Source: Escherichia phage ES17. From it: 64,000 nt of DNA. Below the pieces are notes generated by a model. That model searched no databases and was not told where the DNA came from. It saw only the letters and a program-made list of their open reading frames with translations. Position 1 is the stretch's first letter. Every line of letters starts with the position of its first letter. Position numbers and translations under genes: made by a program. This document shows positions 40,103 to 56,376 of this stretch, piece after piece. The stretch lies in the sequence record NC_070984.1. One strand, given 5' to 3'.

Positions 40103-40171
40103 ATTTATTACCTAAGAAGTTTAATTTGGTTTATATAAAAGAAAAGGCCACCTGATTAGGCAGCCTTTGTT

Positions 40172-40465: not shown

Positions 40466-40475
40466 TATAACCTCT

Positions 40476-40790: not shown

Positions 40791-41119
40791 TAGATTTCTC
40801 CTGATTCTCTTTGATTAAAGGTGTGGATGGCGTGGCAATTAGCACACAATATCCTGCACTTCCTCATCTCTTCTTTTACTTGAGATAAAGATCTGGTGTG
40901 CCCTTTGGAGAGTTCGAATGACTTAGTTAATGGATTTAAATGATCAAACTGAAGAGCAGATGCGTGGCCCTTAAAGCCACACTCAGAGCATCCATAGAAT
41001 GTTTTAACTCTACGGATAAAAGCTAGTTGCCTAACTCTTCTTTTCTCGTTATCTGCCTTTCTCTTATCTCTATTTCCTGGGTCGGCCCATCTACACGAGT
41101 CATTGCAAAACCTCTGCAT
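40790..41119 (-). CDS. HNH endonuclease
   Basis: CSECGFKGHASALQFDHLNP...CANCH. Confidence 0.75.
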   Translation of the reverse strand: MQRFCNDSCRWADPGNRDKRKADNEKRRVRQLAFIRRVKTFYGCSECGFKGHASALQFDHLNPLTKSFELSKGHTRSLSQVKEEMRKCRILCANCHAIHTFNQRESGEI

Positions 41120-41207
41120 TATATACTTCGTTACAAATGGTACCTTACAGGTTTCACATTCCTTGTGGTATGTTGCTATTTGGACCCCCTTGTGTGAACT
41201 ATAAGAA

Positions 41208-41657
41208 TCAACTCTCTTCTAGTATAATCCTGTACATTGCTTCCTGAGCATCTTTCATATCTACATATGGACCAAGCACCTCACTATCTTTTCTGATGAA
41301 CCAATCACCTTCTTTGAATATCAGAGATACGTGAACATCTTTATTATTTGCTTTGACTGCTCGCCCCCATGCTGGGTTATGTCGGGATAAATTATCAATA
41401 TGACAATTATCAGTGCGCCCATCCAGATGGTGTAAATAAGATTGAGGCCACTGGCCTGTCTCTTTATACCATACGGCTTTCTTCAATTCAACAATGCCAC
41501 ATGGTAGTCCTATGTATAGGATATTAGGCTGTAAGCTAAAATTATACCACTTAGATGTGAAAGGGATTAGAGGTTCCCTTTTGGTGAAAAACATCGGCCC
41601 CTCTCGAATGTATTCTAGACTATCTATACACTTCAAAATCTTTTCACTATAAAGCAT
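41208..41657 (-). CDS. HNH-family endonuclease (HNH_3-like)
   Basis: LHHLDGRTDNCHIDNLSRHNPAWG motif. Confidence 0.6.
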   Translation of the reverse strand: MLYSEKILKCIDSLEYIREGPMFFTKREPLIPFTSKWYNFSLQPNILYIGLPCGIVELKKAVWYKETGQWPQSYLHHLDGRTDNCHIDNLSRHNPAWGRAVKANNKDVHVSLIFKEGDWFIRKDSEVLGPYVDMKDAQEAMYRIILEES

Positions 41658-42397
41658 TAACTGTTTACCTTTTCCATAGCTTTAACAATAGCTTTACAGA
41701 AACCAGAACGAACAATGTCATCCGATTCGCCGTCTACAATCTCAGCGAACTCATACAGATCATGTTCATCAATAAAGTTAGTAGCCCAAGTAAGACCGCT
41801 CTCACGACCACGCATATCATGCTGGTTAGTATCACCCATGCAGAACAGCTGAGAGGTTTCTCCCAATCGAGTCATGATTGAGAAGGCTTCATCTTTAGTG
41901 GTGTTCTGGAACTCATCAACAATAACAATAGCATCATTGAAAGAACGACCACGGAGATATTCCAGAGGTACGAACTCGATGTTACTGTTACCGAGCTGGC
42001 ATTCATAGAACCCCTTACCATATCGCTGAGTAATAACATCAATGATAGGCATCAGGTAAGGTTCAAACTTCTCACGCATTCCTCCCGGAAGTAACCCAAG
42101 AGAGTTGCCCATGCCGACAGAAGGGCGACTCAGAATGATCTTCTGAATCTTACCGCTCTTCAGTGCATCAATAACTGTGGAAGTGATTACAAAGGTCTTA
42201 CCACAGCCCGCAGGAGCGTCTGTGAACACAACTTGTTTAGTCTTAATAGCATTGAGTAGCTCAGACTGAAACTGGTTCTGAGGGACTACAGGCTTTGCTA
42301 AAACCACCTCTTCATACTCTCGCTTACCTTTACGAGTAACAAGTGCTTCCCGACGAAGGTCTTTCCGTGATTCTTTCCGTGATTGACGACGACTCAT
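41657..42397 (-). CDS. phoH: PhoH-like ATPase
   Basis: Walker A TDAPAGCGKTF, Walker B VIVDEFQN, PhoH-like spacing and length (246 aa). Confidence 0.85.
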   Translation of the reverse strand: MSRRQSRKESRKDLRREALVTRKGKREYEEVVLAKPVVPQNQFQSELLNAIKTKQVVFTDAPAGCGKTFVITSTVIDALKSGKIQKIILSRPSVGMGNSLGLLPGGMREKFEPYLMPIIDVITQRYGKGFYECQLGNSNIEFVPLEYLRGRSFNDAIVIVDEFQNTTKDEAFSIMTRLGETSQLFCMGDTNQHDMRGRESGLTWATNFIDEHDLYEFAEIVDGESDDIVRSGFCKAIVKAMEKVNS

Positions 42398-42579
42398 TTA
42401 CGCTCTCCAATTTCTTCGTAATGACACTCAGTAGTTAAGCAGTCTTTACAGATTGCTGTATAAACCCTGACGTTAGTAAATCGTTTGTTCTCCCCTTTGG
42501 TTGGAGAGCCTTTGGCAAGCTCTCTGATAACCTTGTTACTTAAATGAAGGTTTGTTCCTTCACATTTAGAGCACTTCAT
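42394..42579 (-). CDS. Small zinc-ribbon protein (61 aa)
   Basis: CSKCEG...CKDCLTTECH Cys pairs. Confidence 0.4.
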   Translation of the reverse strand: MKCSKCEGTNLHLSNKVIRELAKGSPTKGENKRFTNVRVYTAICKDCLTTECHYEEIGERK

Positions 42580-42895
42580 GGTTCATATCTTTATGAATCC
42601 TGTAAACAGCTGTCGCCATACAAGCAACAGCCTCGTTGTGTGGGAGGTGCATCCCTGTAGAACCATCCCAATCTTTGAACTCATTGTCAAAGACTCCGGT
42701 AGGCTCTGGATATAGAGCTTGCAGCTCCACTAGATCATTAGCAACTTGTTGCCATTTATCATCAGACCAGATAGGGTCATCCAACCAGTAATACAAATAG
42801 GAATGGATGATCAATTGCTTTCTATGCCGATTGATTACTTCAGCGGGACTTATCTCACTTCCATTTGAAGTCCTAAATGTATTACTGTCAATCAT
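42566..42895 (-). CDS. Hypothetical protein (109 aa)
   Basis: ORF in operon context. Confidence 0.4.
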   Translation of the reverse strand: MIDSNTFRTSNGSEISPAEVINRHRKQLIIHSYLYYWLDDPIWSDDKWQQVANDLVELQALYPEPTGVFDNEFKDWDGSTGMHLPHNEAVACMATAVYRIHKDMNHEVL

Positions 42896-43077
42896 TTCAC
42901 AACCTTAAATTTGAATGTTGTTGGGTGATAATAATGCAACCTATTGATAGTGTGCTTTGTTTCGAGATATATCCTGCAAGAGTGGCACATGACATGGGTC
43001 AGACCAGTTACAGGGTTAGGTTTGAAGTTGGCGACAGGCTTCTCTTTCTTACAGAAGCTACAGACTTTCTTTTCCAT
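42892..43077 (-). CDS. Small zinc-finger protein (61 aa)
   Basis: Start at internal ATG (MEKKVCSFCKK...CHSC) with SD GGAGAA. Confidence 0.4.
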   Translation of the reverse strand: MEKKVCSFCKKEKPVANFKPNPVTGLTHVMCHSCRIYLETKHTINRLHYYHPTTFKFKVVK

Positions 43078-43291
43078 CTTTTCTCCAGTGGTCAACGAAT
43101 TGCTGAAACACCTTATGGTCGAATGTGAAACCACGAGCAATCCCACACTCTACGAAAGTAGAAGGCATATAGTCTACATCATCTTTAGATGTATGACCAT
43201 AAACTTGAATAAGCTTTTTAATCTTATCCTTCTCTCTTCGAGGAAGCATCCTAAATGCCTCCTGAATATCTGTAATATGTTTGATTTTCAT
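43058..43291 (-). CDS. Hypothetical protein (77 aa)
   Basis: ORF in operon context. Confidence 0.4.
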   Translation of the reverse strand: MKIKHITDIQEAFRMLPRREKDKIKKLIQVYGHTSKDDVDYMPSTFVECGIARGFTFDHKVFQQFVDHWRKDGKESL

Positions 43292-43307
43292 CAGAAAGCC
43301 TCTGATA

Positions 43308-43964
43308 TTAACTCTCCAAAGTTTTCTTCAGAGCTGCCCATGAGATTGGGTAGAGCTTAGCCATCTCTTCATCTACGGATTTAGCAAACACTCGAACTTC
43401 ATATTGAGCGTGAGATGAGAGTCGCTGACGACACAACTCAAACCAGCCATACAAAGAACCAGTCCACACCCACTCAGTGATCATCCCCTGAGGAAGAACA
43501 AATCGAGCTTGCTCTGGTGCAATAAATTCAATCAACTTGTCATATGTTGCTAGAGAAGCTTCATATGCATCGTTAATTAACATTAATGCTTCAGCTCGCT
43601 CTCCGTCGATGAGTTGAATCCCTGAACCTGCATGGAGGTCCGAAGGTCTCGCAAAAATCTCTTTAGGGATGAAGACTTCAACTGCTCCATCTTTATACCG
43701 CCGGGACATTTCGTTCCACGAGAATCCAACCTGATGCTTGCCCAACTGTCTCGCAATTGCGATAGGTGCTTTGCATCGGAAACTGACTTGCGGGTGTCGG
43801 AATGGAGTACAGTGTTTTTCCCGTGCAAGGAAGTTGATAAGTTTTGTGTCTCTCTCATTTAAGTCACCTTCTCGAACAACACCGAAAGATACTCTAGCTG
43901 CATTGACTACAGATTTGTCACTACCCATTGCTTCAATCAGTGTTGCTTGTAGTTGTTCGTTCAA
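43308..43964 (-). CDS. thyX: Flavin-dependent thymidylate synthase family protein (ThyX-like)
   Basis: ThyX-type pattern ARVSFG...HCTPFRH...SRRY...ARFVLPQGMITEWVWTGSLYGWFELCRQRLSSHAQYEVR; the canonical RHR motif position appears as KHQ (by-eye alignment); TTG start with SD AAGGAA. Confidence 0.7.
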   Translation of the reverse strand: MNEQLQATLIEAMGSDKSVVNAARVSFGVVREGDLNERDTKLINFLAREKHCTPFRHPQVSFRCKAPIAIARQLGKHQVGFSWNEMSRRYKDGAVEVFIPKEIFARPSDLHAGSGIQLIDGERAEALMLINDAYEASLATYDKLIEFIAPEQARFVLPQGMITEWVWTGSLYGWFELCRQRLSSHAQYEVRVFAKSVDEEMAKLYPISWAALKKTLES

Positions 43965-44403
43965 TTAAAAGTTCCTTTTTTCGATTCATGTAAACTTGAT
44001 GAGCTTCTTCGGCAGTTCCATACATACCTAGATGTATATCTACTTTATCAATACAAATAACAGCCCTATATCTAATAGTCCCTGATTTATATTTGACAAC
44101 CTTAACACCTTGAAGCCCTGTTTCCTTGTTTGATACCCTAGCCCCGAACTGGTTGTGGCAGTTTGTCGAGGTGTCCACCAATCTCAAGTTCTGTATTGAG
44201 TTGTTCTTCTTATTTCTATCGATATGGTCTATCTGAGAAGAAGGCCACTCTCCATAGTAAAAGAACCATGCCACTTTATGAGCTTTGTGTACTTTCCCTT
44301 TAAACCGCAGGGTTATGTACTTACTTCGAGTTCCTCCTAATTTCTTACCTTTTCGAAAGAACTCTCCAGTCTCAGGGATATACTCTAAATCATCGATTAA
44401 CAT
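43933..44403 (-). CDS. HNH homing endonuclease with AP2-like DNA-binding domain
   Basis: EWPSSQIDHIDRNKKNNSIQNLRLVDTSTNCHNQ (HNH) followed by AP2-like GVKVVKYKSGTIRYRAVI. Confidence 0.75.
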   Translation of the reverse strand: MLIDDLEYIPETGEFFRKGKKLGGTRSKYITLRFKGKVHKAHKVAWFFYYGEWPSSQIDHIDRNKKNNSIQNLRLVDTSTNCHNQFGARVSNKETGLQGVKVVKYKSGTIRYRAVICIDKVDIHLGMYGTAEEAHQVYMNRKKELLIERTTTSNTD

Positions 44404-44668
44404 TCAGAGCTGTATCTAAAAATGCTTTCAGGTTTGCTTCAGTCTGCATACCAGAGAGGCTGTAGTGTGCACCACTGTTACGGTCAGGCACAACGAAAGC
44501 AGGGATACTTCGTACACCATACTTAACAGCTTGTTCACGACCATCACCTTCAAGGATGTTAATCTCTTCCACTTCTACATCAAACTCCTTAACAACCTTC
44601 TCAAAGGTAGGAGCCATTGCTTTACATGGAGCACACTGATCACTATAAAACTTAATTACTTTAGGCAT
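44390..44668 (-). CDS. Thioredoxin/glutaredoxin-like protein
   Basis: 92 aa with active-site CAPC (CxxC) in thioredoxin-fold context YSDQCAPCKAMAPTFEKV. Confidence 0.7.
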   Translation of the reverse strand: MPKVIKFYSDQCAPCKAMAPTFEKVVKEFDVEVEEINILEGDGREQAVKYGVRSIPAFVVPDRNSGAHYSLSGMQTEANLKAFLDTALNVNR

Positions 44669-44676
44669 GTAAATCC

Positions 44677-44856
44677 TTATGCAGTCAGGAGGTGAAGCAG
44701 GAATGGGATAACAACAGCTACGATAACCATGATAGTTGATGCTGTTTGAATCTCACCTTTCTTATCAGGAGTTTCTTCAATAAGCTTACCAGAAGCCCAA
44801 TAAATACCACCACCAATAAAGATAGCCCAAATACCCCATACGATTGCTGATAACAT
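44677..44856 (-). CDS. Small membrane protein with two predicted TM helices (59 aa); holin candidate
   Basis: MLSAIVWGIWAIFIGGGIYWASG...TIMVIVAVVIPFLLHLL; below ORF-track cutoff. Confidence 0.3.
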   Translation of the reverse strand: MLSAIVWGIWAIFIGGGIYWASGKLIEETPDKKGEIQTASTIMVIVAVVIPFLLHLLTA

Positions 44857-44917
44857 ATATCTATATCCTTATAAATAAGTTCGCCCCACCTCGGGTTAGG
44901 AGACAGGGCGGAGGTTT

Positions 44918-45481
44918 TTAGTAAGACACGTCACCACTTGAATGGGACATGTTGCTCTTGACGAAGTAGCAATACTTGCCAAGACCTTCATTAATTTCTT
45001 GAAGCATACTCTGATCGACAGGGTAGGTGGCTAAATCACCATCAAACTCATCCATCTTCTCAATAATACACATCAAGGTCATGCACATATCAGAGAGCAT
45101 ACCGTCCATGTCTAGATCAGCGTTACCCTCTGAGAACCAAGCATGAGAGAGGTAGTTAGCTGCTGTAGCATCCACTTTAACACAGTGGTAACGCATACGT
45201 TCAGCAATACGATCTCCTACCTGTCGTGCGTAATCTTCCAGCTCATCAAACATACCATGAACACCCTGAAATCCTGCACCAGAGACGTTCCAGTGGTAGT
45301 TTTTAGCTTTGATATGCAAGAGTTCCATGTTAGCTTGTAAGCAGCTCAGGATGTGTTCTAGGCTGTTTGCACTAATCATGCCTTGCATTGTTTCAAGGCG
45401 AGAGATTGAAAGCTCAGACCGGTCTAACATACTATAACTGTCACGACCAATCTCAGGTAAATCAAAGACATTCTTATGCAT
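44918..45481 (-). CDS. dps: Dps-like ferritin (DNA protection during starvation family)
   Basis: Dps signature KAKNYHWNVSGAGFQGVHGMFDELEDY...DRIAERM and C-terminal YFVKSNM; start at ATG 45481 with SD GGAGAAAA. Confidence 0.7.
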   Translation of the reverse strand: MHKNVFDLPEIGRDSYSMLDRSELSISRLETMQGMISANSLEHILSCLQANMELLHIKAKNYHWNVSGAGFQGVHGMFDELEDYARQVGDRIAERMRYHCVKVDATAANYLSHAWFSEGNADLDMDGMLSDMCMTLMCIIEKMDEFDGDLATYPVDQSMLQEINEGLGKYCYFVKSNMSHSSGDVSY

Positions 45482-45803
45482 TTGGGTTTTCTCCATCAAG
45501 TTCAACTGAATTAGCAACATTACGTGCAATATTATCCATTACCTGCTGGGTAATTACGATGCAGTTCTGTGGATCTACTGACTTAGAACGCCCCATTTCA
45601 GGGTCATACACCTTAACTCGCTTAGCAGTTGAACCTGTAACCTGAAGAACCTTCAACAGATATCCCTGATTACCGATAGACCAAGCAACAACATCACGAT
45701 TCTTGATAAAGCGACCAAGCATATCACGATGATAAAACTGTTGCATCACCTTGGATTTTGTAATCTCTTCAGTGGGCGGGGCCACTTTACTCAAATCTAA
45801 CAT
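45474..45803 (-). CDS. Hypothetical protein (109 aa)
   Basis: Promoter-like motif about 40 nt upstream. Confidence 0.4.
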   Translation of the reverse strand: MLDLSKVAPPTEEITKSKVMQQFYHRDMLGRFIKNRDVVAWSIGNQGYLLKVLQVTGSTAKRVKVYDPEMGRSKSVDPQNCIVITQQVMDNIARNVANSVELDGENPNA

Positions 45804-45839
45804 AACTCTCTCCTGTAAAATACAAATTCTTATTGTACT

Positions 45840-45855
45840 CTATATACATTTGAGA
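45840..45855 (-). promoter_or_regulatory. Phage promoter-like motif (reverse strand), AAATGTATATAG variant
   Basis: Reverse complement of 45841..45852 reads CAAATGTATATA, one mismatch to TAATGTATA; upstream of gene starting at 45803. Confidence 0.4.
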
Positions 45856-45875
45856 GTTACCATATCTACTACCAA

Positions 45876-46085
45876 TCAGTAGTAAATTACTTTAGACATA
45901 AAAGAACCAGTGTTAGGGTCTTCATGCCAGCGATGTATGTCAGCGCTTTTTACTATTGTGCCCAGAGTCTTCAACTGTTTCTTAGCAATACGAGCCTCTT
46001 TGCGAGTGTCAAACAATTTGATGCTATCTTTTCTCATGTGTTGCTCAAGATCCCAAACAACATGAATAGCCCACATCTTTTTCAT
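45876..46085 (-). CDS. Hypothetical protein, paralog of adjacent gene
   Basis: 69 aa; resembles 46085..46294 (basic middle, C-terminal aromatic ...VIYY vs ...KVHY). Confidence 0.4.
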   Translation of the reverse strand: MKKMWAIHVVWDLEQHMRKDSIKLFDTRKEARIAKKQLKTLGTIVKSADIHRWHEDPNTGSFMSKVIYY

Positions 46086-46294
46086 TAGTAATGCACCTTT
46101 CCGCTGATATAAACACGACCAGAAGAATACTCCTTGGCCTTATGAATACTGATGCTCTTAGTTAAGTCTACATTGAACATAGACTTTTTAAAATCTCGAG
46201 CTTGTTGGCGAGTGGGTAGTGCAGTCATAGTCATGCCACCTGATGCCCACTTAATCTTTGCTAACCAAAATTGTCTCATAGTGATTGGTCTCAT
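46085..46294 (-). CDS. Hypothetical protein, paralog of adjacent gene
   Basis: 69 aa; ATGA-type overlap with downstream gene. Confidence 0.4.
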   Translation of the reverse strand: MRPITMRQFWLAKIKWASGGMTMTALPTRQQARDFKKSMFNVDLTKSISIHKAKEYSSGRVYISGKVHY

Positions 46295-46335
46295 TTTACT
46301 AAACTCTTTAAATATTATTACTATGGATTATAACA

Positions 46336-46557
46336 TTAGGTCTCGATAAGGCGACTAGTATCATAACCGACATACGGAGATATTAGATTATTCTCAGGAG
46401 CAGTCCCTCGACAAGCAATAACAATATCATATTTCCCAGAGCCGTGAACTTCGTGGAAGATTTCAACTGCCTTATCTTTTTCAGTGGAGAATTGTATCGG
46501 ATACACTTCACCTCTTTTGTAGGGGACTATAACATAAAGATCTACTGTTTTATGCAT
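46336..46557 (-). CDS. Hypothetical protein (73 aa)
   Basis: ORF in operon context. Confidence 0.4.
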   Translation of the reverse strand: MHKTVDLYVIVPYKRGEVYPIQFSTEKDKAVEIFHEVHGSGKYDIVIACRGTAPENNLISPYVGYDTSRLIET

Positions 46558-46761
46558 ACCTCACTGCTCCATTTCACTATCGTTTGACCAAACTAGGCTG
46601 TGATGTTTGAATTCACCTTTCAGCTCCTTAGTATGATTACTGTCAAGTTGGGTTTGTTTAACAATCAACCCCACATCAAATTCTGATACAGACTTCTCTC
46701 CTTCTTCTAAGTTGTTGTTATAAACACTTCACAGAAGCTCGGTCATTTTTTCATTAGTCAT

Positions 46762-47271
46762 CTATCTTTCATCCACATTAAAGGATAGGTGAAGCCTACT
46801 TCTCATAGACTTCGCTAGGAGTTTTGCCTCTTCAAGAGTTTTCACTCCATATACAGACTCACGTTTACCATCTTTTTGAATAGATACACAGAATGTCCCG
46901 CCCTTCTCTTGGTAGACATTCTTAACTCCTAGTTTGTTATCAACCCTTGTCTTAGCATTCTGACTGTTCTCAGAGTGATAGCACTTTCTCAGGTTAGTTT
47001 CTTCTAGGTTTTCTCTGTTACCATCGGCATGATCTATTTGATATTCATCCGATAAATCCTCACCAGTATAAAGAACAAAAAGAATCCTATGATTGTGGAC
47101 ATGAACTCCTCCTAAGGGAATTTGATAATATCCATCTTTTGTGAGCTTGCCAGCAGGTTTACCTACTATATCATTAGCAAACTTACTAGGCTTCCTTTTC
47201 CAAGAAAGCCCTGAAGGTGATGACATGTCTATGTTAAAGAGATCAACTACTTCATCATAGCATATCAGCAT
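46762..47271 (-). CDS. HNH homing endonuclease with AP2-like domain
   Basis: HNHRILFVLYTGEDLSDEYQIDHADGNRENLEETNLRKCYHSENSQN plus AP2-like GVKNVYQEKGGTFCVSIQ; start at internal ATG 47271 with SD GGTGG; paralog of 43933..44403. Confidence 0.7.
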   Translation of the reverse strand: MLICYDEVVDLFNIDMSSPSGLSWKRKPSKFANDIVGKPAGKLTKDGYYQIPLGGVHVHNHRILFVLYTGEDLSDEYQIDHADGNRENLEETNLRKCYHSENSQNAKTRVDNKLGVKNVYQEKGGTFCVSIQKDGKRESVYGVKTLEEAKLLAKSMRSRLHLSFNVDER

Positions 47272-47809
47272 GATTTGTTCCACCAAAAGCTTTTGTTGGC
47301 CCTTGTTGGTTATTATATGAACCTTTCGTTGCGTAGCTGTCCTCTTCGGATGAAGAGTGTTTAAAGAATTCCATTTGACCAATACGCATTCCCGGTTTGA
47401 TCAGCAGAGAGTGATGCTGTAGAACATTCTTGAATTCCATAGTTAACTGGCTACCATGCCAACCGCCGTCAGCATGACCAGCGTGCATGTGCTCTAAGAA
47501 ACAACGACCAACAGTGGACCGTAGCATGAAATCGCAGCTAATATTATCTGGCAGATTGAATGTCTCCATTGTATGAGCCAAGAAACACTCACCCGGTTTG
47601 ATCACTAACCCTTCCTCTGGAATCATAACCTCATTGAAGTTAGGAGATTCTTTAGCAGAGATATCAACAACCCCGTTAGCTGCACCTTCCATTAGAACGC
47701 GATCTCCAATACGAACATCAATGCTGGAGGAATTAACAGCTGAGTGTGGTGCATCAATAACACCATCATCAATTAATTTATGTAACTCTGGACTTCCTAG
47801 TAAACTCAT
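47255..47809 (-). CDS. dcd: dCTP deaminase / dUTPase-fold enzyme
   Basis: 184 aa; N-terminal pattern ...LIDDGVID...SSIDVRIGDRV typical of dCTP deaminase. Confidence 0.75.
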   Translation of the reverse strand: MSLLGSPELHKLIDDGVIDAPHSAVNSSSIDVRIGDRVLMEGAANGVVDISAKESPNFNEVMIPEEGLVIKPGECFLAHTMETFNLPDNISCDFMLRSTVGRCFLEHMHAGHADGGWHGSQLTMEFKNVLQHHSLLIKPGMRIGQMEFFKHSSSEEDSYATKGSYNNQQGPTKAFGGTNHADML

Positions 47810-47818
47810 TCTTATTCC

Positions 47819-49132
47819 TTAGTTATTTGTTTCCATGTCAAAAGAGATTCCACGACCCGCTTCATCGGCAAACCGAACTGTACGGGTTTGAGGTTCTAAT
47901 ACTTCAGGGTTGTTAGCAATAAAGCGATCAGCGAGACTATCTCCCAAATCTTGTTCCATACCTTCATCAGTCCAGATAACACGAGAAGGGGCGTTGATAT
48001 CACCAACAGCGAAACCCTGACCAGAGAACTGACGTGCGCTAACAGTTAAGCCGTTTGGTCGACCACGAGAGGGTCTAGCCATCCATCGCTCCATAGAATC
48101 ACTTGTAATACCAAGAGCTTCTTCAAAAGATGTTCTACGAGTAGGGCTTTCTCTTCGTGACTCTTGTGCTCGACGCATTGCAGGGGCTACAAACACCCCT
48201 TCAATTGCATTGTGTCGGTTAGGTTCCTCTTCTCGACCAAGCAGATCACCACCCGTGTTAGTCGTTAAATTTGTCAACCCCTCAGACCAATACGCATGAA
48301 TCTGACCAGAACCGTGAAGACTAGACATAATCTGAATCTCTTCATAAGGGATTCCAAAGAATCGACTCATGTCTCGGTTAACACAATATAGAGCACTTGT
48401 TGTATCTTCAATAAGAGAAACCTGACCTAATCCATTGACTAGATGACTAACTGGCTGAGGTGTGGGAAGATATCGAGTTTGGGCCATGTATTGATGCGCA
48501 ACTGCTGGAGAGGAAAATCTCAACACTTGTGAGTTAGGCCACTTCTTGTGAACATACCTGATTTCACGACTAGAGACAACCACTGGACAAGGGGAAGTCA
48601 TAGCCAAATATCCGTGAGAAGTCATGAATAAGTTGTCAAGAGTCATCGCACCACGGCACATCATAGGAAAATTATCCAATACCTCTTCAATAGAAGTAGG
48701 ATAATTAAACATGAATTGGATACGAACCCCATTCCACTGAAACTCAATAATATCAGTGAATGTTAATTGAGAACCCCCAGCATAGGATTCGTTTGTAGCT
48801 TCAGCAAGAAGTGATGCATATTCAATATCTTGTGACTCTAGCCATTCCTTCACATTACTTTCAATCTCCCGTCCAAGCTCTTGCCAACGATCAGTTGGGA
48901 TGAAAGTGTTTTGAGTTCTTGGTGTTTGTCCTCTGACAATAAAGATATCAATGTCATGTGGAGCTATGTTATTAAGGACAGCATCACGAACAGCCCCACC
49001 AGTAATGATGGGACAGATACCATCTGGAATCAAGTTGTTGTTAATCAACTGTTCAATGAAGTGACGACCAACAGTGATATCAGGTTGTTGAGCAACCTTA
49101 TCTTCAATTTGGTTAATCGGGATAACAATCAT
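47819..49132 (-). CDS. Pol-beta-superfamily nucleotidyltransferase with CCA-adding-enzyme/poly(A)-polymerase-like head motif
   Basis: ITGGAVRDAVLNNIAPHDIDIFIV matches GGxVRD...DxD head-domain signature; about 300 aa C-terminal region of unknown function; start at ATG 49132. Confidence 0.5.
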   Translation of the reverse strand: MIVIPINQIEDKVAQQPDITVGRHFIEQLINNNLIPDGICPIITGGAVRDAVLNNIAPHDIDIFIVRGQTPRTQNTFIPTDRWQELGREIESNVKEWLESQDIEYASLLAEATNESYAGGSQLTFTDIIEFQWNGVRIQFMFNYPTSIEEVLDNFPMMCRGAMTLDNLFMTSHGYLAMTSPCPVVVSSREIRYVHKKWPNSQVLRFSSPAVAHQYMAQTRYLPTPQPVSHLVNGLGQVSLIEDTTSALYCVNRDMSRFFGIPYEEIQIMSSLHGSGQIHAYWSEGLTNLTTNTGGDLLGREEEPNRHNAIEGVFVAPAMRRAQESRRESPTRRTSFEEALGITSDSMERWMARPSRGRPNGLTVSARQFSGQGFAVGDINAPSRVIWTDEGMEQDLGDSLADRFIANNPEVLEPQTRTVRFADEAGRGISFDMETNN

Positions 49133-49133
49133 T

Positions 49134-49691
49134 TTACATTTTCCAATATAATGAAGGTGGGTCGTAAGGGTCAAATCCCGTGAGTTCACACAAGAAAAGA
49201 TAAACCTTAACAGTTAAGTTAACGTCCTGTTCACAATAAGTAAACATATCTTCAGTGAAAGCATCCCATGCTTCCTCTTGCTCACCATAATCGCCCTTAA
49301 GTTCTCCTAAGAACTCACCCCACTGCTTCAAACCATGACCCCTTGGGCCACGTCTAGGGTCGCCTTTCGGATACTCAGGACTGTCACCAATACGGTCAGG
49401 TTTAAGATATCGACTAAGACATAAAGTGTCGAAGACGTTAAAACGATAGTTAATCAGATTGGGATACATCTTCTTCAGAGCACAAAGGTCGAAGTCAATA
49501 ATATTGTGACCCACCAGTACATCTGCTTCTGTAAGTTTACGAATCCCATCTTCAATTTGGTGAGGCCGATAGCCCCACCTTTCACCAGTTTCAACATCGA
49601 AGATATAAATACACCATACTTTAGTTATGTCATCGTACAGTGCATTACTCTCGATATCGAATGCAAACACTTTCTTCTTTTTCTTTACCAC
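49134..49691 (-). CDS. DnaQ-like 3'-5' exonuclease, stand-alone proofreading domain
   Basis: Exo I FAFDIES, Exo [11 protein letters not shown], Exo III YCEQDV; encoded about 10 kb upstream of the polymerase domain gene. Confidence 0.8.
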
Positions 49692-51475
49692 GGTGAAGCT
49701 CCATCTGCTTGGTTGACGAGAGAAGCTGCATCCTCTCCGTTAGTTAAAACGAATGGATTATCTTCATCAACTTCAAAGTCTTCCCTTTCTACAAGTCTCC
49801 CGGTTTCACTGATATACTTAGTATAGCAGACACCTGTCTGACCGTAGTTACGTTCTTTCAGTAATCGAATGACTGAGAGGTTCTTAGCTAAGCCATCAGC
49901 TTGCTTGTCACGCTCAAAGCCAATGATACACTGACACCAACGCATAAGAGAACGAGAGCCAGTGAACTGCACTTCACGTACCTGTCCACCTTCTTCATGA
50001 GGAGCACCACCTGCCGGAGCATTAAGGTGAGATAGCACGAAAGCGGTAAAGTCTAATTCTTTGCACATACCAGCAAGCTCGGAAGCAATCTTACTGATTT
50101 CAGTGTTAATCTCTGAAGGTGTTAAATGGGACACCAGAGCGGTAATGTTATCAAGGATGATGAACTTACACTGGTTTTCAACTACCCAGAAACGGATACA
50201 CTGTTTAATGTCTTCCCATTCATTCTGTCCGAAGTTGTCATACAAGAAGAATTTGTCTGCATAACGAAGTGCTTCATTACGCAAATCCTCCTCATCATAT
50301 TCAACATCAGGTCGGTGGAAAGGAATTGATGCCGACTTACCAGCAATGTTCTTAACAGACATGCCTACCTTCTCTTCCAAGAAGAAGCCACCTCCATTAA
50401 AACCATGTTCTAAGCACAGATGAGCAACCAGCTCATGAGCAATGAGTGTTTTACCACTCCCTACTCCACCACCAATTGCTACCACCTCTCCCCATCGAAT
50501 ACCGAAGGTCATCTCATTCAGAGTCTTCCACGGATATGGGATACCCCACTCCGCTTTCTTCAGAGCATCATCAAGGCAATCAAAGATTGTTACAGCACCA
50601 GCAGGAGATTCCCGCTTTGCTGAGTACTTGAGAATGTTGAATAACTCTTGACCACGACCAGACAGAAGCATGTCATTCGCATCCTTAATCTCTTTCTCCA
50701 CACCGTTGTATGGGAAAGTTCCTTTAGGAATACGAGCAAACTTAACATGAGGGAATAAAGAACGACCTTTTGTTAAAGCTATCTCACCTGCATCATCGTT
50801 GTCCATGCAGAGCACAACCTCCTCAAAACCATTTACGAAGTCTCGATTACGAGACAACACAGAAGAGATTGAACCTGCACCGAACGGTAAAGAAACACAT
50901 GCTGGTTTGATGTTTGTTGCATTTGTAAAAGCTGTAAGGACATGGAAACCTGACATACAGGATAGCGGGTCTTCAAAAATGAACAGCTTCTTGTTGTACA
51001 CATCTCCACGTTGAGCTTGTGCCATACCAAACAAATCTGCTTCTTTCACACTGCCGACGTAATAGAACTTCTTACTATCTAGCAGCTTAACCTCATAACC
51101 AACGATGTTTCCATCACGTTCACGAGGAAAGAAGTAGCTGTCTGGTGTCTGACCATCAGTTTGACTGAGACCAATACGACACTCAAACCGCTCTGATACA
51201 GCTTTAGGGATTAAACGGCGAGTGAGTTCACCCTGAGGAAGCTCTAAGCAATCATCTAAGACTTCTCTCAACTCTTCAGGGGATAACTCTTTCTTCTCGT
51301 TTGGAGTAGGTGTAGTGCCCTTTTCGAACACTTCGTAATTCCCACAACGGTTACAACTTCCCCACTCCTCACCAGTCTCTTCGTTACGGAAGAGAATCAT
51401 GTGGTTGTGGGTTTTATCACGACCATGAGAGATACATTCCTTACAACCTGTGTCTCCCAAAATGATCTTTGACAT
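49685..51475 (-). CDS. DNA primase-helicase (T7 gp4-like)
   Basis: N-terminal Cys4 zinc ribbon CKECISHG...CNRCGNY; TOPRIM DxD ([12 protein letters not shown]); DnaB-family Walker [10 protein letters not shown]. Confidence 0.85.
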
Positions 51476-51501
51476 GCTCTTCCTCCTTGGAATCCTTGAG
51501 C

Positions 51502-51705
51502 TTAGTAGAACGAACGAATTTCATCCCACACTTGTTCCTGTTCTTTCCTATAAAAAGAAAGTTGGGTCTTGAACATCTCCACTGATGATTCAAAGTTTTT
51601 GGTTTGTGCAGCTTCAACGAAACGTTCATGTCGGTTGATTTTGCACCGTAGCATTAAATACTTGGCTTCAAGTCTCCGAAGAGCCTGCCTTTTCTCAAGA
51701 TTCAC
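51502..51705 (-). CDS. Hypothetical protein (67 aa)
   Basis: Basic helical ORF between GGACT-like gene and primase-helicase. Confidence 0.35.
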   Translation of the reverse strand: MNLEKRQALRRLEAKYLMLRCKINRHERFVEAAQTKNFESSVEMFKTQLSFYRKEQEQVWDEIRSFY

Positions 51706-52114
51706 TTTTCAGATACTCTGACCAGTCGCCAGATTCAACCAGAATATCTTGTTCTTCGTCGATATGATAAATCCAAGCGATAACAGTTTCACCTGAGTCC
51801 ATCTTAACAGCAATCTGAGTACGCTGATAGAAGCTGTCTTCAGGGCTACGTTTGTTGTAACCTTCCAGACGGTCATACGGACCTTCCAGACCTGCTTTGT
51901 CAGTAGCAAACACTTCTACACGAACAGGCTTATTGTTATTGCTGTGTGCGAGAGAGATGCTCGGGAAGTAGGAACCACCGTAACGGAACAGATCGAAGTT
52001 GTCTTCAGTCCAACCTTCACCAATTGACTTAGCACCAGCTCGGTCATTAACTAAATAGTTAGCTTGACCACGACGAAGAGAACCATAAGTTGCTACGTAA
52101 ATTACTTCTGACAT
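51695..52114 (-). CDS. Gamma-glutamyl cyclotransferase-like protein (AIG2/GGACT fold)
   Basis: YVATYGSLRRGQANY (YGSL motif), LDRLEGY, VIAWIYHI characteristic of AIG2/GGACT family. Confidence 0.65.
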   Translation of the reverse strand: MSEVIYVATYGSLRRGQANYLVNDRAGAKSIGEGWTEDNFDLFRYGGSYFPSISLAHSNNNKPVRVEVFATDKAGLEGPYDRLEGYNKRSPEDSFYQRTQIAVKMDSGETVIAWIYHIDEEQDILVESGDWSEYLKSES

Positions 52115-52183
52115 TATCTATACCTTTGTTGGTTTGTTTAGTTTATCCGAACTAGCCTCATCTTTCGAAGAGGCTAAAGCAGA

Positions 52184-52369
52184 TTACTCTGTAATAAAGA
52201 TTTTGATTACACCGCAGATTGCTGCACTTTCAAACACTGCAACAGCTTCACTTCCTTGAAAGAAGGCCACTTTGCCATCAGAGAAGTTAAACATGTCAGC
52301 ATCGAGGTCCATTGCTCGCATCTCACCAGCTGCATTGGTATCTTTAAACAGAACTTTATACTTATTCAC
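52184..52369 (-). CDS. Hypothetical protein (61 aa)
   Basis: ORF within amide-ligase operon. Confidence 0.35.
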   Translation of the reverse strand: MNKYKVLFKDTNAAGEMRAMDLDADMFNFSDGKVAFFQGSEAVAVFESAAICGVIKIFITE

Positions 52370-52614
52370 AGATATGTTACTCCCTTGTCTTGTTGTGCTT
52401 CAGTGATGATACGCTCTACACATTCCATAGAGTACTTATCACCACGTTTTAGGAAAGTTACAATTGCAGAGAATTGATTACCAATCATTCGCTGATTAGT
52501 AATACCCAACTCCTCACACAATTTACGCAACTCTTTACGAGAGCCTACAATAAGAGGCTCTTTTTGTTCCATCATTCCATTTTGTACTAGATCTTCCAAT
52601 GAAAACATATCCAT
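52366..52614 (-). CDS. Hypothetical protein (82 aa)
   Basis: ORF within amide-ligase operon; overlaps neighbours by 4 nt. Confidence 0.4.
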   Translation of the reverse strand: MDMFSLEDLVQNGMMEQKEPLIVGSRKELRKLCEELGITNQRMIGNQFSAIVTFLKRGDKYSMECVERIITEAQQDKGVTYL

Positions 52615-52620
52615 ATATCC

Positions 52621-53823
52621 TTAGTAGTTTACAACAGTGCCATCATTCAGGGTAAGGTTATTAATCTGCAACACACGACCAAGCTGACGATCACTAATTG
52701 GTGCGTTCCATCCAGAGCGGTAGAAGTTACGACCACAGAAGAACAAGATCACATTACTTGCTACAGTTGAACCATTTTCAGGATGCTTGATGTTAGCGAT
52801 ATAATAACCACGACGCAGATTACGACGGGTTACAGGGTTGATCTCTAACCCTTGCTCTTCAACCTGCATTATTTCAGGGACAGGCTCCGAAGACTCTTCA
52901 ACAACTGGCTCGGAGCTTTCCGCTGATAGTGCGTAATCCTCATCACCTGCTGGTGAAAATGTTTCTTCCACTTCTTCCACGGGAAGTTCGTATGCAACAC
53001 GGTAGTCAGGCTCAACACCAGAGAAGCTCTTAACAAACTCAACGATGTTGTGAGTGTAGGTTTCCAGAGTTGTGCCAGTCAGGCCCGGAGCTGTATTAAC
53101 TTCCAGAACCCAAGCGTTAGTACCTTTGCTAATCAGGTCAACAGCACCGAAGTTCAAACCCAGAGCAGATACAGCTTTGTGAGCTTGAATCAGAACTTGA
53201 TCAGGAGGCGCTTCAGTGAAGGAGTTAGAATAAACCCAACCAGTATGATGGTTACGAATATCTTCACGATAGCTTTCCAGTTCACGATAACCATTACGAC
53301 GAATCTTCTTCTGAACGTAAGTGATAACACCTTCGAACACATGAACACGCCATTCACGACGTGGGCCTTGGATGCCTTTGGTGTACAGAGGAGCATCCGC
53401 AACACCTTCTCGCGGAAGACGAACAGTGATCCCCTCACCAGAGTGACCAGTCAAGGTTGCACGTTCATAAACAATTTCATTCCGGTTCCAGTTCTGAGCT
53501 ACTTCACGATCTACGGTGTATTCAACAGTTTTGACTTCAGCTAAACGCAGTGCGTTAAATGCTGCAACTTTGTTAGCGGCTCGGTTCAAGGCAACCACAG
53601 AGTTCAATACAGTTGCACCGCCAAAGAAAGAATCATTATATCGACGGTTTCCGTAGTTGACAACAATATCACCAACTCGAGAACGATAACGAGAACCCTC
53701 TGATACCAGAGACATTACGTTAGCATTTAGTCGAAGTTCCTGAATCTTAGTGTTAATTGCAGAAGTAAGTTCACGAACTGAATCAGAAGGGCCATAAGGA
53801 AGAACACGGATACGAGTAGTCAT
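52621..53823 (-). CDS. ATP-grasp ligase (RimK/glutathione-synthetase-like) with C-terminal extension
   Basis: 400 aa; ATP-grasp patterns EWRVHVFEGVITYVQKK, GLNFGAVDLISKGTNAWVLEVNTAPGL; C-terminal about 110 aa unknown. Confidence 0.65.
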   Translation of the reverse strand: MTTRIRVLPYGPSDSVRELTSAINTKIQELRLNANVMSLVSEGSRYRSRVGDIVVNYGNRRYNDSFFGGATVLNSVVALNRAANKVAAFNALRLAEVKTVEYTVDREVAQNWNRNEIVYERATLTGHSGEGITVRLPREGVADAPLYTKGIQGPRREWRVHVFEGVITYVQKKIRRNGYRELESYREDIRNHHTGWVYSNSFTEAPPDQVLIQAHKAVSALGLNFGAVDLISKGTNAWVLEVNTAPGLTGTTLETYTHNIVEFVKSFSGVEPDYRVAYELPVEEVEETFSPAGDEDYALSAESSEPVVEESSEPVPEIMQVEEQGLEINPVTRRNLRRGYYIANIKHPENGSTVASNVILFFCGRNFYRSGWNAPISDRQLGRVLQINNLTLNDGTVVNY

Positions 53824-53825
53824 TG

Positions 53826-54050
53826 TTAGATACCTTTAAGTTTAAGAATTTCGTTACGAGTTTTTTGAATCTGAGCTTCAATTTCGAAGTAGTCATTGAA
53901 CGCATCGTTCTCTACTTCATCGGATGGTGCATCAATCAGACCGAAAGCGAACGGATACAGCTTTCGCTGCTCCGTTACCAATTCGATATGAACTCCTATG
54001 TAATACTGTAGGAGAGTAATCTTCGGTTTCTTAGGAACCAGATTTGACAT
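53826..54050 (-). CDS. Hypothetical protein (74 aa)
   Basis: ORF within amide-ligase operon. Confidence 0.35.
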   Translation of the reverse strand: MSNLVPKKPKITLLQYYIGVHIELVTEQRKLYPFAFGLIDAPSDEVENDAFNDYFEIEAQIQKTRNEILKLKGI

Positions 54051-54264
54051 GAGGTTCTACCTTAATGCCTTTGATTTTTACATAATCAGCAAGCACGTTG
54101 TTGATCACCGTTGGGAAAGGAACCTCAACCTGTGTTTCAAGTACTTGACCAATACCAGCTTGCATCCACTTCTGGATTGCACGAAGGTTATCACATCCTG
54201 TGCTCGTCATCGGGATACGTCGAGTAGTTACAACGTTATCCAGCATCATCTTACGAATTTCCAT
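54031..54264 (-). CDS. Hypothetical protein (77 aa)
   Basis: ORF within amide-ligase operon. Confidence 0.35.
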   Translation of the reverse strand: MEIRKMMLDNVVTTRRIPMTSTGCDNLRAIQKWMQAGIGQVLETQVEVPFPTVINNVLADYVKIKGIKVEPHVKSGS

Positions 54265-54266
54265 AC

Positions 54267-56297
54267 TTAACCTCTATTCAATGAACATTTAGGAGAATTA
54301 CAATAAACTTGATTCATAGAACCAAGCGTACAACTTTCAGCATCGCGCCACGGAATCTGCTTAAAACACTCTGAGCAGTATCCGAGGGTTGACCACATTG
54401 CTTTGGTGAAGTCAGTGCTTCGGTTTCCGTCGAAGCTGACGACAGTTTTGCGGAGAGCTGTTCGTGATTCAGGAAACACACCTGCTTTCTCAGCAGGTTC
54501 CTCCTTTTTTGGCTTAGTTGAGATTGCAAAAATACTGTTGCTACGTTTCTCAACATAAGCATCAACAACATCCTCCAGAGTGATGCCTGTCTGTTTCGCT
54601 GAGGAAGGTAATACAGTCATACGACCGATCATATCTTCAGTTACACGTAAAGCGAATTCAGGACGACGGGCGTTTGTTGTATCTGTTGCTTTAATCCAGA
54701 CATAACCATCTTTGATCGTAGCATTAGACACTTTCTTCTTTACTTCTACAGCGCAGACTTTACAGATATCTTCACCACGAAGACGACTAAGTTCATCATC
54801 GAACTCATTCTCTGTTTTAACTTCACCGCAGATTTCACAAACACCAATAGGAGTTTCCTCCTCTTCTTCCTCTTTAGGTTTAGTCAAACCTTCCAGACAT
54901 TCAGGATGCCAATAGCACTGATATGCGAAGACTGCTTTAGGTGCATCCTTCCAATCAATGTGCTTATCACAACCACCACAATCACCATGAGAGTGCGCTT
55001 CCCAGAATTTACGAGTGATAGTAACACCATTCTTGTTGACGAAACTATCATTCATATCAAAAGGGATATCATCATCGAAGTCAGCAGTAGTTGACTCAGG
55101 CTCCTTTTTCTCCAGAGATGGGTCAACAAAACGACCTGCTGTGATCACTAAACGGACCATAGCATTGACTTCGGAGATGCAGGATACTGTCCCACGGTAA
55201 ACAATTTTAGGGTCTTTCAGGGCATCCTGATAAGCCTTAATGTCTACGTTATGAACATCACCTTCGATATACTCTTGAGATTTCTCATCGTAGATATAAC
55301 CAATCATCTTACCACGAGAAGGAACAGCACCGGCAGTTGCATAAGGAACAAACTCATGCGGAGTGATTTCCACAGTCATATCGCGGCGAATATCAATGTT
55401 TCGATCGCTTGCGATTTTGTTTTGACTTACCACTGCGTTTCTTCGACGAACGTCTGCCGCTGTCACACCCGGCTTCGTGTCGTAAGGATTGCTTGTACTG
55501 CTTTTTGAGGAACTTTGATAGTTGCTTTGGCTGTAATTGTTCGAGTAGTAATTGCCCCAACGATTGACTACCGTAAAAACCGGAAGCTCGTGGGCGACCT
55601 CTTCAACCAGTGTCATGCTGTTATTAGACATGTCAAAGATATACTCTGTACCAACTTTACACTCAAAATGCTCATCAATACGGTTCTTGTGAGACTTCGA
55701 ACGCTTCAGAATCCACATCAGCATATCTTCTTCAGAAGCGCCAAACCAATCTCTGTTACAACGTGCGAGATGGAAAGGACGCTCTTCGTTACGAATGATA
55801 TGAAGGCGGTTATCAGAAGCATCATGCCAGATTAAGGTGAAAGCACCATCCAGCTTTTGAATAGTCTCTGCTGCACCAATAGTGTTAATAGAGTGGCAGA
55901 TGTTCTCACTATCTACCTCGAAGTTTTTACTGTCAGGTAACAGGTCTTGGTCCATCAAGGTTCCATTATGAACCAGAGTGATGTTACCATGTTGGAAAGG
56001 ATGGGCGTTCTTGGCGTTAACTGCACCTTTCGTTGCATGACGGCTGTGACCAACAATCCATGAAGGTGCTACAGTGTAAGCTGTTTCACCAGTGGTGTGC
56101 TTCTTGTACTCATCTTGTAGGATGAATGCGAAAGAAGGAAGAGCTTCTTTATAAGTGAAGACTTCCTTAGTACTTTTACGCTGACCAAAGATACCGGAGG
56201 AATGTTGTCCTCGGAATACTCCAGCATAAAAGAGTTGGTTAAATACGTCTAAATCAGTGCTTGACAGATTACCGCCAGCTAATACGATGCCACAAAT
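54267..56297 (-). CDS. Class-II (Ntn) glutamine amidotransferase domain protein with Cys-rich zinc-ribbon C-terminal region; probable ATT start codon
   Basis: Reading frame is open from stop at 56301..56303; N-terminus (ATT)CGIVLAGG...FRGQHSSGIFGQRK matches Ntn GATase N-terminal Cys nucleophile; SD AGGTGG 7 nt upstream of ATT at 56295..56297; no ATG/GTG/TTG in frame before 55958; three CxxC clusters in C-terminal half. Confidence 0.6.
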   Translation of the reverse strand: MCGIVLAGGNLSSTDLDVFNQLFYAGVFRGQHSSGIFGQRKSTKEVFTYKEALPSFAFILQDEYKKHTTGETAYTVAPSWIVGHSRHATKGAVNAKNAHPFQHGNITLVHNGTLMDQDLLPDSKNFEVDSENICHSINTIGAAETIQKLDGAFTLIWHDASDNRLHIIRNEERPFHLARCNRDWFGASEEDMLMWILKRSKSHKNRIDEHFECKVGTEYIFDMSNNSMTLVEEVAHELPVFTVVNRWGNYYSNNYSQSNYQSSSKSSTSNPYDTKPGVTAADVRRRNAVVSQNKIASDRNIDIRRDMTVEITPHEFVPYATAGAVPSRGKMIGYIYDEKSQEYIEGDVHNVDIKAYQDALKDPKIVYRGTVSCISEVNAMVRLVITAGRFVDPSLEKKEPESTTADFDDDIPFDMNDSFVNKNGVTITRKFWEAHSHGDCGGCDKHIDWKDAPKAVFAYQCYWHPECLEGLTKPKEEEEEETPIGVCEICGEVKTENEFDDELSRLRGEDICKVCAVEVKKKVSNATIKDGYVWIKATDTTNARRPEFALRVTEDMIGRMTVLPSSAKQTGITLEDVVDAYVEKRSNSIFAISTKPKKEEPAEKAGVFPESRTALRKTVVSFDGNRSTDFTKAMWSTLGYCSECFKQIPWRDAESCTLGSMNQVYCNSPKCSLNRG

Positions 56298-56376
56298 TTT
56301 CTAATCCACCTGAAGGGTAAACCCTTTCATCTAATTAACCTTTAAATTGTGCCCCTTTATCAGAGGCACCCATTGA

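Follow-up and report, generated by a model that had tools for sequence, protein, structure and literature searches.

A divergent class II-type nucleotidyltransferase head predicted in the replication block of Escherichia phage ES17

Two questions are raised by a gene in the replication block of Escherichia phage ES17: what role a conserved, apparently active class II-type nucleotidyltransferase head plays when it lacks the elements of tRNA and nucleotide specificity, and why such a head adjoins the replicative helicase in several podovirus lineages. The gene lies at 47819..49132 on the minus strand of a stretch of 64,000 nucleotides (sequence record NC_070984.1; the whole stretch is called the window here), and its product of 437 amino acids, with residues counted from the ATG at 49132, is referred to as the window protein. 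As judged from its sequence, the window protein is not a CCA-adding enzyme but a divergent nucleotidyltransferase that keeps the catalytic head motif. Our best explanation, classification and function taken together, has a probability of about one half. Its first part, that the protein is a divergent class II-type head belonging to a head-only phage clade and devoid of tRNA-specificity elements, is very probable; its second part, a replication-linked activity on a substrate that is not tRNA-specific, plausibly in counter-defence, is a tentative suggestion made by analogy, and we consider it the less probable of the two. The coding sequence and the parts of its product are the following.

47819..49132, minus strand: whole coding sequence, 437 amino acids plus stop, ortholog of phiEco32 gp73 and SU10 CDS74 (PHROG 12715)
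48257..49132, minus strand: conserved folded core, residues 1-292 (AlphaFold2, substitution-rate ratios, family conservation)
48935..49006, minus strand: motif A of the class II-type head, ITGGAVRDAVLNNIAPHDIDIFIV, residues 43-66 with G45, G46, R49, D50, D60 and D62 (translation)
48752..48754, minus strand: D127, candidate third catalytic carboxylate, Asp or Glu in 25 of 25 representatives and followed by the invariant I128
48650..48670, minus strand: FPMMCRG, F155-G161, at the position of class II motif B, RRDFTINA (family alignment and mapping through Gad2)
48536..48568, minus strand: REIRYVHKKWP, R189-P199, at the position of class II motif D, EDxxRxLRxxRF (hhalign and a register set by eye)
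47822..48256, minus strand: variable C-terminal tail, residues 293-437, rich in R, E, G and A, predicted to be disordered, with insertions and deletions among orthologs

The open reading frame (ORF) as listed spans 47819..49189 (minus strand), and an in-frame ATG at 49132, 1 nt past the TAA stop of the upstream 3′-5′ exonuclease gene, gives the 437-residue protein beginning MIVIP. Since the N-terminus MI.IP is conserved in all members of the phiEco32 gp73 family (also called the Kuravirus family below), 49132 is taken as the real start, and the GTG-initiated versions of 453-456 amino acids found in some records are over-extended. An initial annotation had placed the gene at 47819-49132 without naming the strand, and these limits hold. 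It had also noticed a head motif in the N-terminal region, and residues 43-66 do translate to ITGGAVRDAVLNNIAPHDIDIFIV. Residues 45-62 (GGAVRDAVLNNIAPHDID) present GGxVRD followed about 10 residues on by DxD, and align with GGAVRDALLGLPVKDRD of E. coli Cca as well as with the motif of the human and psychrophilic CCA enzymes. Together with the predicted fold, this motif agrees with the proposed membership of the nucleotidyltransferase (pol-beta) superfamily with a class II-like head. In view of its invariance in the family and of the PHROG, Pfam and Foldseek matches given below, it is not a chance resemblance.

Among 25 cluster representatives of the family, down to 21% identity, G45, G46, R49, D50, D60, D62, F64, Y117, I128, Q139, P156, Y193 and K197 are invariant. 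Because the GG pair, R49, D50, D60 and D62 never vary and position 127 is always acidic, the window protein would be a catalytically active nucleotidyltransferase. D127 is aligned to an Asp of Ralstonia phage DU_RP_I gp11. E104 (in IEYASLL) is a literal match to the glutamate of Cca EEYALAR, yet this position holds E, Q, P, T, S or D across the family, and E130 is variable. The invariant Q139 (in IQFM) was considered as a replacement for the third carboxylate and rejected, as its strand maps to Cca FTCYA, past the flexible loop, and not to EEYALAR.

The core behaves as one conserved unit. AlphaFold2 modelled residues 1-292 from a 25-sequence family alignment with a mean predicted local distance difference test (pLDDT) score of 90.5 and a predicted template modelling score (pTM) of 0.87, and in a model of the full-length protein pLDDT was below 50 over most of residues 274-437. 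Orthologs from three genera (Kuravirus, the KarlSchell_Bas89 type, which is probably Nieuwekanaalvirus, and the Suseptimavirus ECBP2 type) share 30-40% identity that is limited to approximately residues 1-290, and the core is kept across these genera and in metagenomic relatives. The ratio of non-synonymous to synonymous substitution rates (dN/dS) is 0.11-0.135 in the core, indicating strong purifying selection, and a more relaxed 0.44-0.56 in the tail. Up to about residue 290, the family has the motifs IQxM, FP..C.G and R[DE]..Y..KK[WY]P; in the last of these, R189, H195 and K196 are nearly invariant beside Y193 and K197. Hence, of the approximately 300 residues that the initial annotation had described as having no recognisable motif, those up to about 290 are folded and conserved and have motifs of their own, and the description fits only residues 293-437, which are variable and modelled with low confidence. 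This tail gave no Pfam, PDB or PADLOC match, and may tether the window protein to a partner.

Two observations concern the tail by itself. The last residue is W, F or Y in 9 of 24 family representatives, against an aromatic background of 9.5% (binomial P 2e-4, uncorrected for relatedness), and the window protein itself ends ...GISFDMETNN; aromatic C-termini recall the docking tails of T7 gp2.5, T7 gp4 and bacterial SSB. In comparisons with phiEco32 and with a 92%-identical contig, the synonymous rate (dS) is 0.10-0.13 in tail codons and 0.40-0.48 in the core, that is, 3-4 times lower in the tail; either mosaic recombination or a nucleotide-level constraint could account for this low dS combined with a higher dN/dS.

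Likeness to the class II CCA-adding enzymes and poly(A) polymerases is found in the head. The Pfam PolyA_pol head (PF01743) matches residues 43-124 with 18.8 bits (E 0.0022), orthologs score 13.6-21.9 bits, and the profile search proposed along with the initial annotation therefore stays below the gathering score of 23 bits. There is no further Pfam domain in the window protein, neither PolyA_pol_RNAbd nor tRNA_NucTran2, and NCBIfam and PADLOC searches with it returned no matches. Sequence searches of the PDB, with the single protein and with the family profile, gave nothing significant, the CCA enzymes being reached through a 30-residue motif only (E about 0.2). In a Foldseek search of the PDB, the top 38 matches were all class II tRNA nucleotidyltransferases (CCA-, CC- and A-adding; E 5e-5 to 1e-3), with template modelling (TM) scores of 0.31-0.41 on the query and 0.19-0.32 on the target and with 11-17% identity, and the structural overlap covers about 140-165 of the 292 residues. 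As far as the predicted structure goes, the head is of the class II type and little is shared beyond it; Pfam, AlphaFold2 and Foldseek show no body or tail domain, of the kind that binds tRNA or RNA, in the window protein.

The segments that would confer specificity have been replaced. In class II enzymes, the RRD of motif B contacts the ribose 2′-OH and the triphosphate, and the D and R of motif D (EDxxR) template C and A. To locate these positions, we used Gad2, the second Gabija anti-defence protein of SPbeta-like phages (SPbetaL7 ORF159; bioRxiv 10.1101/2023.05.01.538930), whose family aligns to residues 3-162 of E. coli Cca by hhalign with a probability of 82% (E 1e-5). In this alignment Gad2 FDFTVCMG pairs with Cca motif B, RRDLTINA, and Gad2 YPVVSALRVQKY pairs with Cca motif D, EDPLRVLRVARF. 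Mapped through FDFTVCMG, the motif B segment of the window protein is LDNFPMMCRG, in which FPMMCRG stands at the Gad2 position, the arginines and the Asp of motif B are lost and P156 is invariant. The motif D segment is PVVVSSREIRYVHKKW, with P and V/S at the D and R positions, and its REIRYVHKKWP also falls at the position of Gad2 LRVQKY..KGY. Here the register between the Kuravirus family and Gad2 was set by eye, with PVVVSSREIRYVHKKW matching Gad2 PIVSLLRVQKYKDKGY free of gaps, and it is supported by the hhalign alignment with DU_RP_I gp11, in which the segment matches ...LKRIKRLAEKYP. As the motif B and motif D positions hold FPMMCRG and PVVVSSREIRYVHKKW, neither the arginines that sense the ribose nor the D and R that template the base are present. 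In summary, with motifs B and D replaced, no body or tail and a sub-threshold PolyA_pol score, the superfamily assignment of the initial annotation stands, and its reading is wrong or unsupported as regards a CCA-adding or poly(A)-polymerase function.

Judged by profile comparison, the nearest relatives are the small head-only phage nucleotidyltransferases of PHROG 1614. This is the second-best PHROG match of the window protein (E 1.6e-7, residues 35-155). Aligned with DU_RP_I gp11, which itself matches PHROG 1614 with E 1e-30, the Kuravirus family reaches a probability of 77% by hhalign (E 2e-5, 144 columns). A Foldseek search of BFVD returned many podovirus proteins of 170-250 amino acids, with TM scores on the target of up to 0.6, that bear the name 'PolyA polymerase head domain' or 'nucleotidyltransferase'; they include those of LKD16, phiAS7, PP2, Cd1, Ralstonia P-PSG-11 and Yersinia fHe-Yen3-01. 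The nucleotidyltransferase stands between primase gp10 and DNA polymerase I gp12 in DU_RP_I (gp11), follows primase gp14 and helicase gp15 and precedes ligase gp17 in LKD16 (gp16), and, as gp22 of the P. putida phage Emajogi, adjoins primase/helicase gp23. For a wider survey of PHROG 1614 contexts, tblastn searches with DU_RP_I gp11 lacked the sensitivity.

Gad2 itself is connected to the window protein more remotely, through intermediates. Knockout of Gad2 renders SPbetaL7 sensitive to Gabija, a Brevibacillus homolog restores resistance, and AlphaFold predicts Gad2 to be a nucleotidyltransferase (bioRxiv 10.1101/2023.05.01.538930). In precomputed Pfam annotation, PF26128 (Gad2) is on record for about two thirds of the close orthologs; for P0004, an ortholog with 92% identity, the entry reads 'Gad2 (weak)', which stands for an E value of 1e-5 to 1e-3. 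A clear match is on record for P0113. Our Gad2 set consisted of the 7 homologs in supplementary table 10 of the preprint, used with or without four short bridging proteins from our own profile search. With the bridging sequences, the Kuravirus family aligns to Gad2 by hhalign with a probability of 97% (E 6.7e-11) over 106 columns running through FPMMCRG, and 40-42 bits are obtained for the window protein. One of the bridging proteins, P0112, reaches 60 bits with the strict Gad2 profile and 43 bits with that of the Kuravirus family. PHROG 1614 is matched by a Gad2 homolog (E 2.3e-6) as well as by the window protein (E 1.6e-7). Among the residues invariant in Gad2, AGG (TGG here and AGG in orthologs), DxD and an Arg (R189; R152 in Gad2) are present in the window protein. 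Direct orthology to Gad2 was considered and dropped, the strict Gad2 profile giving the window protein approximately 0 bits. Hence, these profile relationships describe a phage-restricted clade of head-only class II-like nucleotidyltransferases with PHROG 1614 as the hub and the Kuravirus family and Gad2 as divergent spokes.

P0112, a short nucleotidyltransferase of the Gad2 family, is encoded on L018, a metagenomic, phage-like sequence, in the vicinity of genes for an Rnl2-type RNA ligase, NAMPT, an NMNAT-Nudix fusion and RNase T. This neighbourhood of RNA repair and NAD salvage differs from the replication setting in which the Kuravirus and PHROG 1614 proteins are found.

The window, by its sequence, is that of a podophage of E. 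coli, a phiEco32-like Kuravirus. The gene, orthologous to phiEco32 gp73 and SU10 CDS74, is a core Kuravirus gene expressed in the early/middle phase; in SU10, mass spectrometry detected its ortholog among the early gene products. The window protein is 99.8% identical to the SkaterBoy_Bas90 'nucleotidyltransferase' and 87.6% identical to phiEco32 phi32_73, and it matches PHROG 12715 'nucleotidyltransferase' over residues 1-437 and profile positions 1-457 of 457 (E 2e-245). The surrounding 10 kb match 98 phage records, nearly all from Escherichia Gordonclarkvirinae, and 96 records carry the protein. The family is narrow: an exhaustive profile search of 1.84 billion cluster representatives (cut-off E <= 1e-3) matched 36 clusters, and word-indexed homolog searches found relatives of more than 73% identity within each genus only, the distant ones coming from the profile search. 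Distant members (21-33% identity) are mostly 274-320 amino acids long, and the long tail is absent from many of them.

A protein of Escherichia phage myPSH1131 is 100% identical to the window protein. The record of this phage (MG983840.1; our loci L005/L006) contains two copies of the gene, an annotated one at 47541-48914 and an unannotated one at 51954-53264, and repeats blocks of other genes as well (an ATP-binding protein, ATP-grasp fragments), which suggests an assembly with artefactual duplications. The idea that the window is this record was dropped: the first 200 bases of the window were not found in the forward strand of MG983840.1, the one strand compared, and no internal duplication was found within the window.

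The genes next to the window protein gene are those of DNA replication and nucleotide supply.

49134..49691, minus strand: upstream neighbour, PolA-type 3′-5′ exonuclease subunit (Pfam DNA_pol_A_exo1; junction sequence)
49685..51475, minus strand: T7 gp4-like primase/helicase (ORF, annotation in orthologous loci, DnaB_C in relatives)
47255..47809, minus strand: downstream neighbour, dCTP deaminase (Pfam DCD, E 4.5e-32; junction sequence)

The location in a replication block given by the initial annotation is thus correct, the order being primase/helicase, PolA 3′-5′ exonuclease, window protein gene and dCTP deaminase, followed by thioredoxin and ThyX. The primase/helicase and exonuclease genes overlap by 7 nt, and the dCTP deaminase start lies 9 nt beyond the stop of the window protein gene. 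In a scan around the gene, promoter and terminator sites were no more numerous than in shuffled sequence, and the gene is therefore read as an internal member of a tightly packed transcription unit. Given the spacings of 1 nt and 9 nt to its neighbours, it is probably translationally coupled to the replisome genes and the dCTP deaminase gene. Metagenomic relatives at 21-28% identity retain the gene order GGACT, primase/helicase, exonuclease, window protein gene, DCD, thioredoxin and ThyX, a conserved synteny that argues for a function connected with replication or with the supply of deoxynucleoside triphosphates (dNTPs) or, at the minimum, for joint expression.

Upstream of the replication block lies the phiEco32-type cluster of amidoligase, GATase, ATP-grasp, COOH-NH2 ligase and GGACT. 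In the window, it occupies 51695..59874 (minus strand) and adjoins the block with GGACT (gamma-glutamyl cyclotransferase-like), ATP-grasp, GATase, Amidoligase_2 and COOH-NH2 ligase genes. The GGACT/Amidoligase_2 cluster accompanies the nucleotidyltransferase in the distant relatives L011 and L014, and it could bear on the restriction-modification (RM) resistance of the Gordonclarkvirinae. A literature search on phiEco32 and amidoligase returned nothing on the window protein gene. On the other side, an HNH_3 endonuclease ORF at 46762..47382 (minus strand) directly follows the dCTP deaminase gene and, as listed, overlaps its 3′ end (47255..47809). An HNH gene also follows dcd in KarlSchell_Bas89, whereas phiEco32 and SkaterBoy_Bas90 have none at this position, and the ORF is likely a homing-endonuclease insertion.

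For the function, we propose that the window protein would transfer a nucleotidyl group from a nucleoside triphosphate (NTP) or dNTP to a 3′-OH or other acceptor whose choice does not depend on a tRNA-binding scaffold. It would act alongside phage replication, either by protecting the replicating DNA, its ends or intermediates, or by manipulating a nucleotide species, and by analogy with Gad2 its purpose may be the evasion of nuclease-type host defences.

Several points weigh against this proposal. The mechanism of Gad2 was still listed as unknown in February 2026 (PMC12904381), so that working like Gad2 predicts little. Against the strict 7-homolog Gad2 profile, the window protein scores 0.4 bits and no other family member exceeds 22 bits, the FD invariant in Gad2 is FP here (the invariant P156), and the 200-residue C-terminal domain of Gad2 is absent from the window protein. 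Moreover, Gad2 belongs to the accessory genes of SPbeta-like siphophages and lies in a variable anti-defence locus, whereas the window protein gene is a core gene at a fixed position, the more usual pattern for a viral housekeeping function. Since the carriers have related T7-like replication modules in common, the synteny reflects descent and is not independent evidence. For the third carboxylate, the alignments offer E104 or position 127, with no secure choice between the two. A literature search turned up no functional study of the phiEco32 gp73 family, and no paper linking Kuravirus with Gabija was found.

A broader form of the proposal, which we think unlikely, would unite PHROG 12715, PHROG 1614 and Gad2 in one class of replisome-associated, template-independent nucleotidyltransferases that blind nuclease-type defences and, in Kuravirus, account for the broad restriction and nuclease resistance of the subfamily, for example by modifying or capping DNA 3′ ends or replication intermediates, or through a nucleotide product. 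The gene and its label of a 'CCA-adding-enzyme-like nucleotidyltransferase' are already public, the gene is discussed in the BASEL-2 paper (Humolli et al. 2025), and the finding by itself adds little, with nothing in the sequence that would surprise a phage genomicist. A biochemical activity for the family could explain both the defeat of the Gabija nuclease by Gad2 and the restriction resistance of Kuravirus. It would also put right the label 'tRNA nucleotidyltransferase', which is misleading, where head-only relatives have been given it, as in Caulobacter phage Lullwater.

One alternative, which we regard as unlikely, is a DNA-modification or unusual-nucleotide pathway shared with the adjacent dCTP deaminase, which would explain the restriction resistance of the Gordonclarkvirinae. 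We know of no pathway for the modification of bases or nucleotides that employs a class II-type head. The BASEL-2 paper, which suggested this explanation, reports that these phages are strongly RM-resistant with no known modification or inhibitor, and points to the dCTP deaminase and this nucleotidyltransferase (Humolli et al. 2025). The window protein gene is invariably found beside DCD, thioredoxin and ThyX, which fits; however, DCD and ThyX together make up the ordinary dTMP route, and the presence of ThyX argues against deoxyuridine (dU)-DNA. The PHROG 1614 relatives in Autographiviridae lie beside a ligase or polymerase with no DCD partner, and the BASEL-2 paper reports no Kuravirus DNA modification.

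Restriction-site counts bear on the same question. Over the whole window (1..64000), 620 six-base palindromes were observed against 1071 expected from base composition and 824 expected from a Markov model; CTGCAG is absent against 17 expected, GAGCTC is absent against 16 expected, CCWGG occurs 8 times, and GATC occurs 131 times against 284 expected. Site avoidance was rejected as the cause of the reported RM resistance, since despite this strong avoidance of palindromes, 38 EcoRV, 8 EcoRI, 8 EcoKI and 108 EcoP1 sites remain; that avoidance alone is insufficient counts in favour of a modification.

A minimal CCA- or A-adding enzyme that restores the 3′ ends of host tRNAs or of a phage tRNA-Arg, after trimming by defence nucleases or exonucleases, is improbable. 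Its support comes from the head: the best PDB neighbours are CCA-, CC- and A-adding enzymes, GGAVRD...DxD is identical in form to motif A of Cca, PHROG 2244 'tRNA nucleotidyltransferase' gives a weak match through the motif only (E 0.025), and some head-only relatives are annotated as tRNA nucleotidyltransferases. Against it stand the replacement of motif B (RRD) and motif D (EDxxR), the lack of body and tail domains to hold a tRNA, with TM scores of 0.3-0.4, and the Pfam results for PolyA_pol (sub-threshold), PolyA_pol_RNAbd and tRNA_NucTran2 (not found). The fixed neighbours are genes of DNA replication and dNTP metabolism and not of RNA repair, nothing specifically favours a repair of host 3′ ends, and E. 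coli already has Cca. The tRNA context points the same way. The initial annotation saw no tRNA gene in the window, and ARAGORN finds 0, with no match to the 3′ half of the relatives' tRNA either. phiEco32 and SkaterBoy_Bas90 have one tRNA-Arg(UCU), located 16-17 kb further along the same strand, which in the frame of the window would fall just past base 64000. As the CCA of this sole tRNA is genome-encoded in both phages, maturation by CCA addition is not required, which reinforces the earlier view that a tRNA-maturation role is not obviously needed.

It is likewise doubtful that the window protein is a catalytically dead scaffold, either a nucleotide- or nucleic-acid-binding module or a replisome adaptor whose tail docks onto a partner. 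The loss of motifs B and D, a third carboxylate that is not securely identifiable (E104 not conserved, E130 variable), and the long tail predicted to be disordered, with the aromatic ends of 9 of 24 representatives, would suit such a scaffold; but among members as low as 21% in identity, the GG pair, R49, D50, D60 and D62 never change and position 127 stays acidic (D or E), and a conservation this strict leads one to expect a working active site. An RNA-tailing role, in which a poly(A) or poly(N) polymerase would tag RNA primers, or transcripts of the host or the phage, to be degraded or processed, is a poor candidate as well.

The reading that we prefer, a divergent class II-type head of a phage clade with a tentative replication-linked role, can be set against the known systems. 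In the class II enzymes and PcnB (E. coli Cca; PDB 1MIV, 3H37, 4WBY, 1OU5, 3AQL), a neck, body and tail follow the head, and RRD and EDxxR are present, all of which are absent here. The stand-alone 'CCA-adding enzyme head domain' of Streptococcus pneumoniae (NP_344798.1; PDB 2LA3) is a cellular protein, gives a weaker match than the full-length class II enzymes, and has no genomic context in common with the window protein. Gad2, from Bacillus phage SPbetaL7 and a Brevibacillus laterosporus prophage, resembles the window protein in being phage-restricted and a predicted nucleotidyltransferase with a class II-like head, and both are without the templating D and R of motif D.

Three elements set the Kuravirus family apart from the PHROG 1614 proteins, which are 170-250 amino acids long: approximately 35 residues inserted behind the DxD strand (about 68-100), which for the most part form a single long helix; a further helical subdomain at about 200-290; and the tail of 145 residues. 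The Kuravirus family also has FP in place of FD, and its gene partners are the exonuclease and DCD instead of a ligase or polymerase. Both share the head motif GGA[LV]RD...D[IV]D[IV]F, the [IV]Q[LF][IM] strand, F[DP]...[CA]R and K[YW]P, and the PHROG 1614 genes, in Autographiviridae, stand like the window protein gene directly beside the primase/helicase in the replication block.

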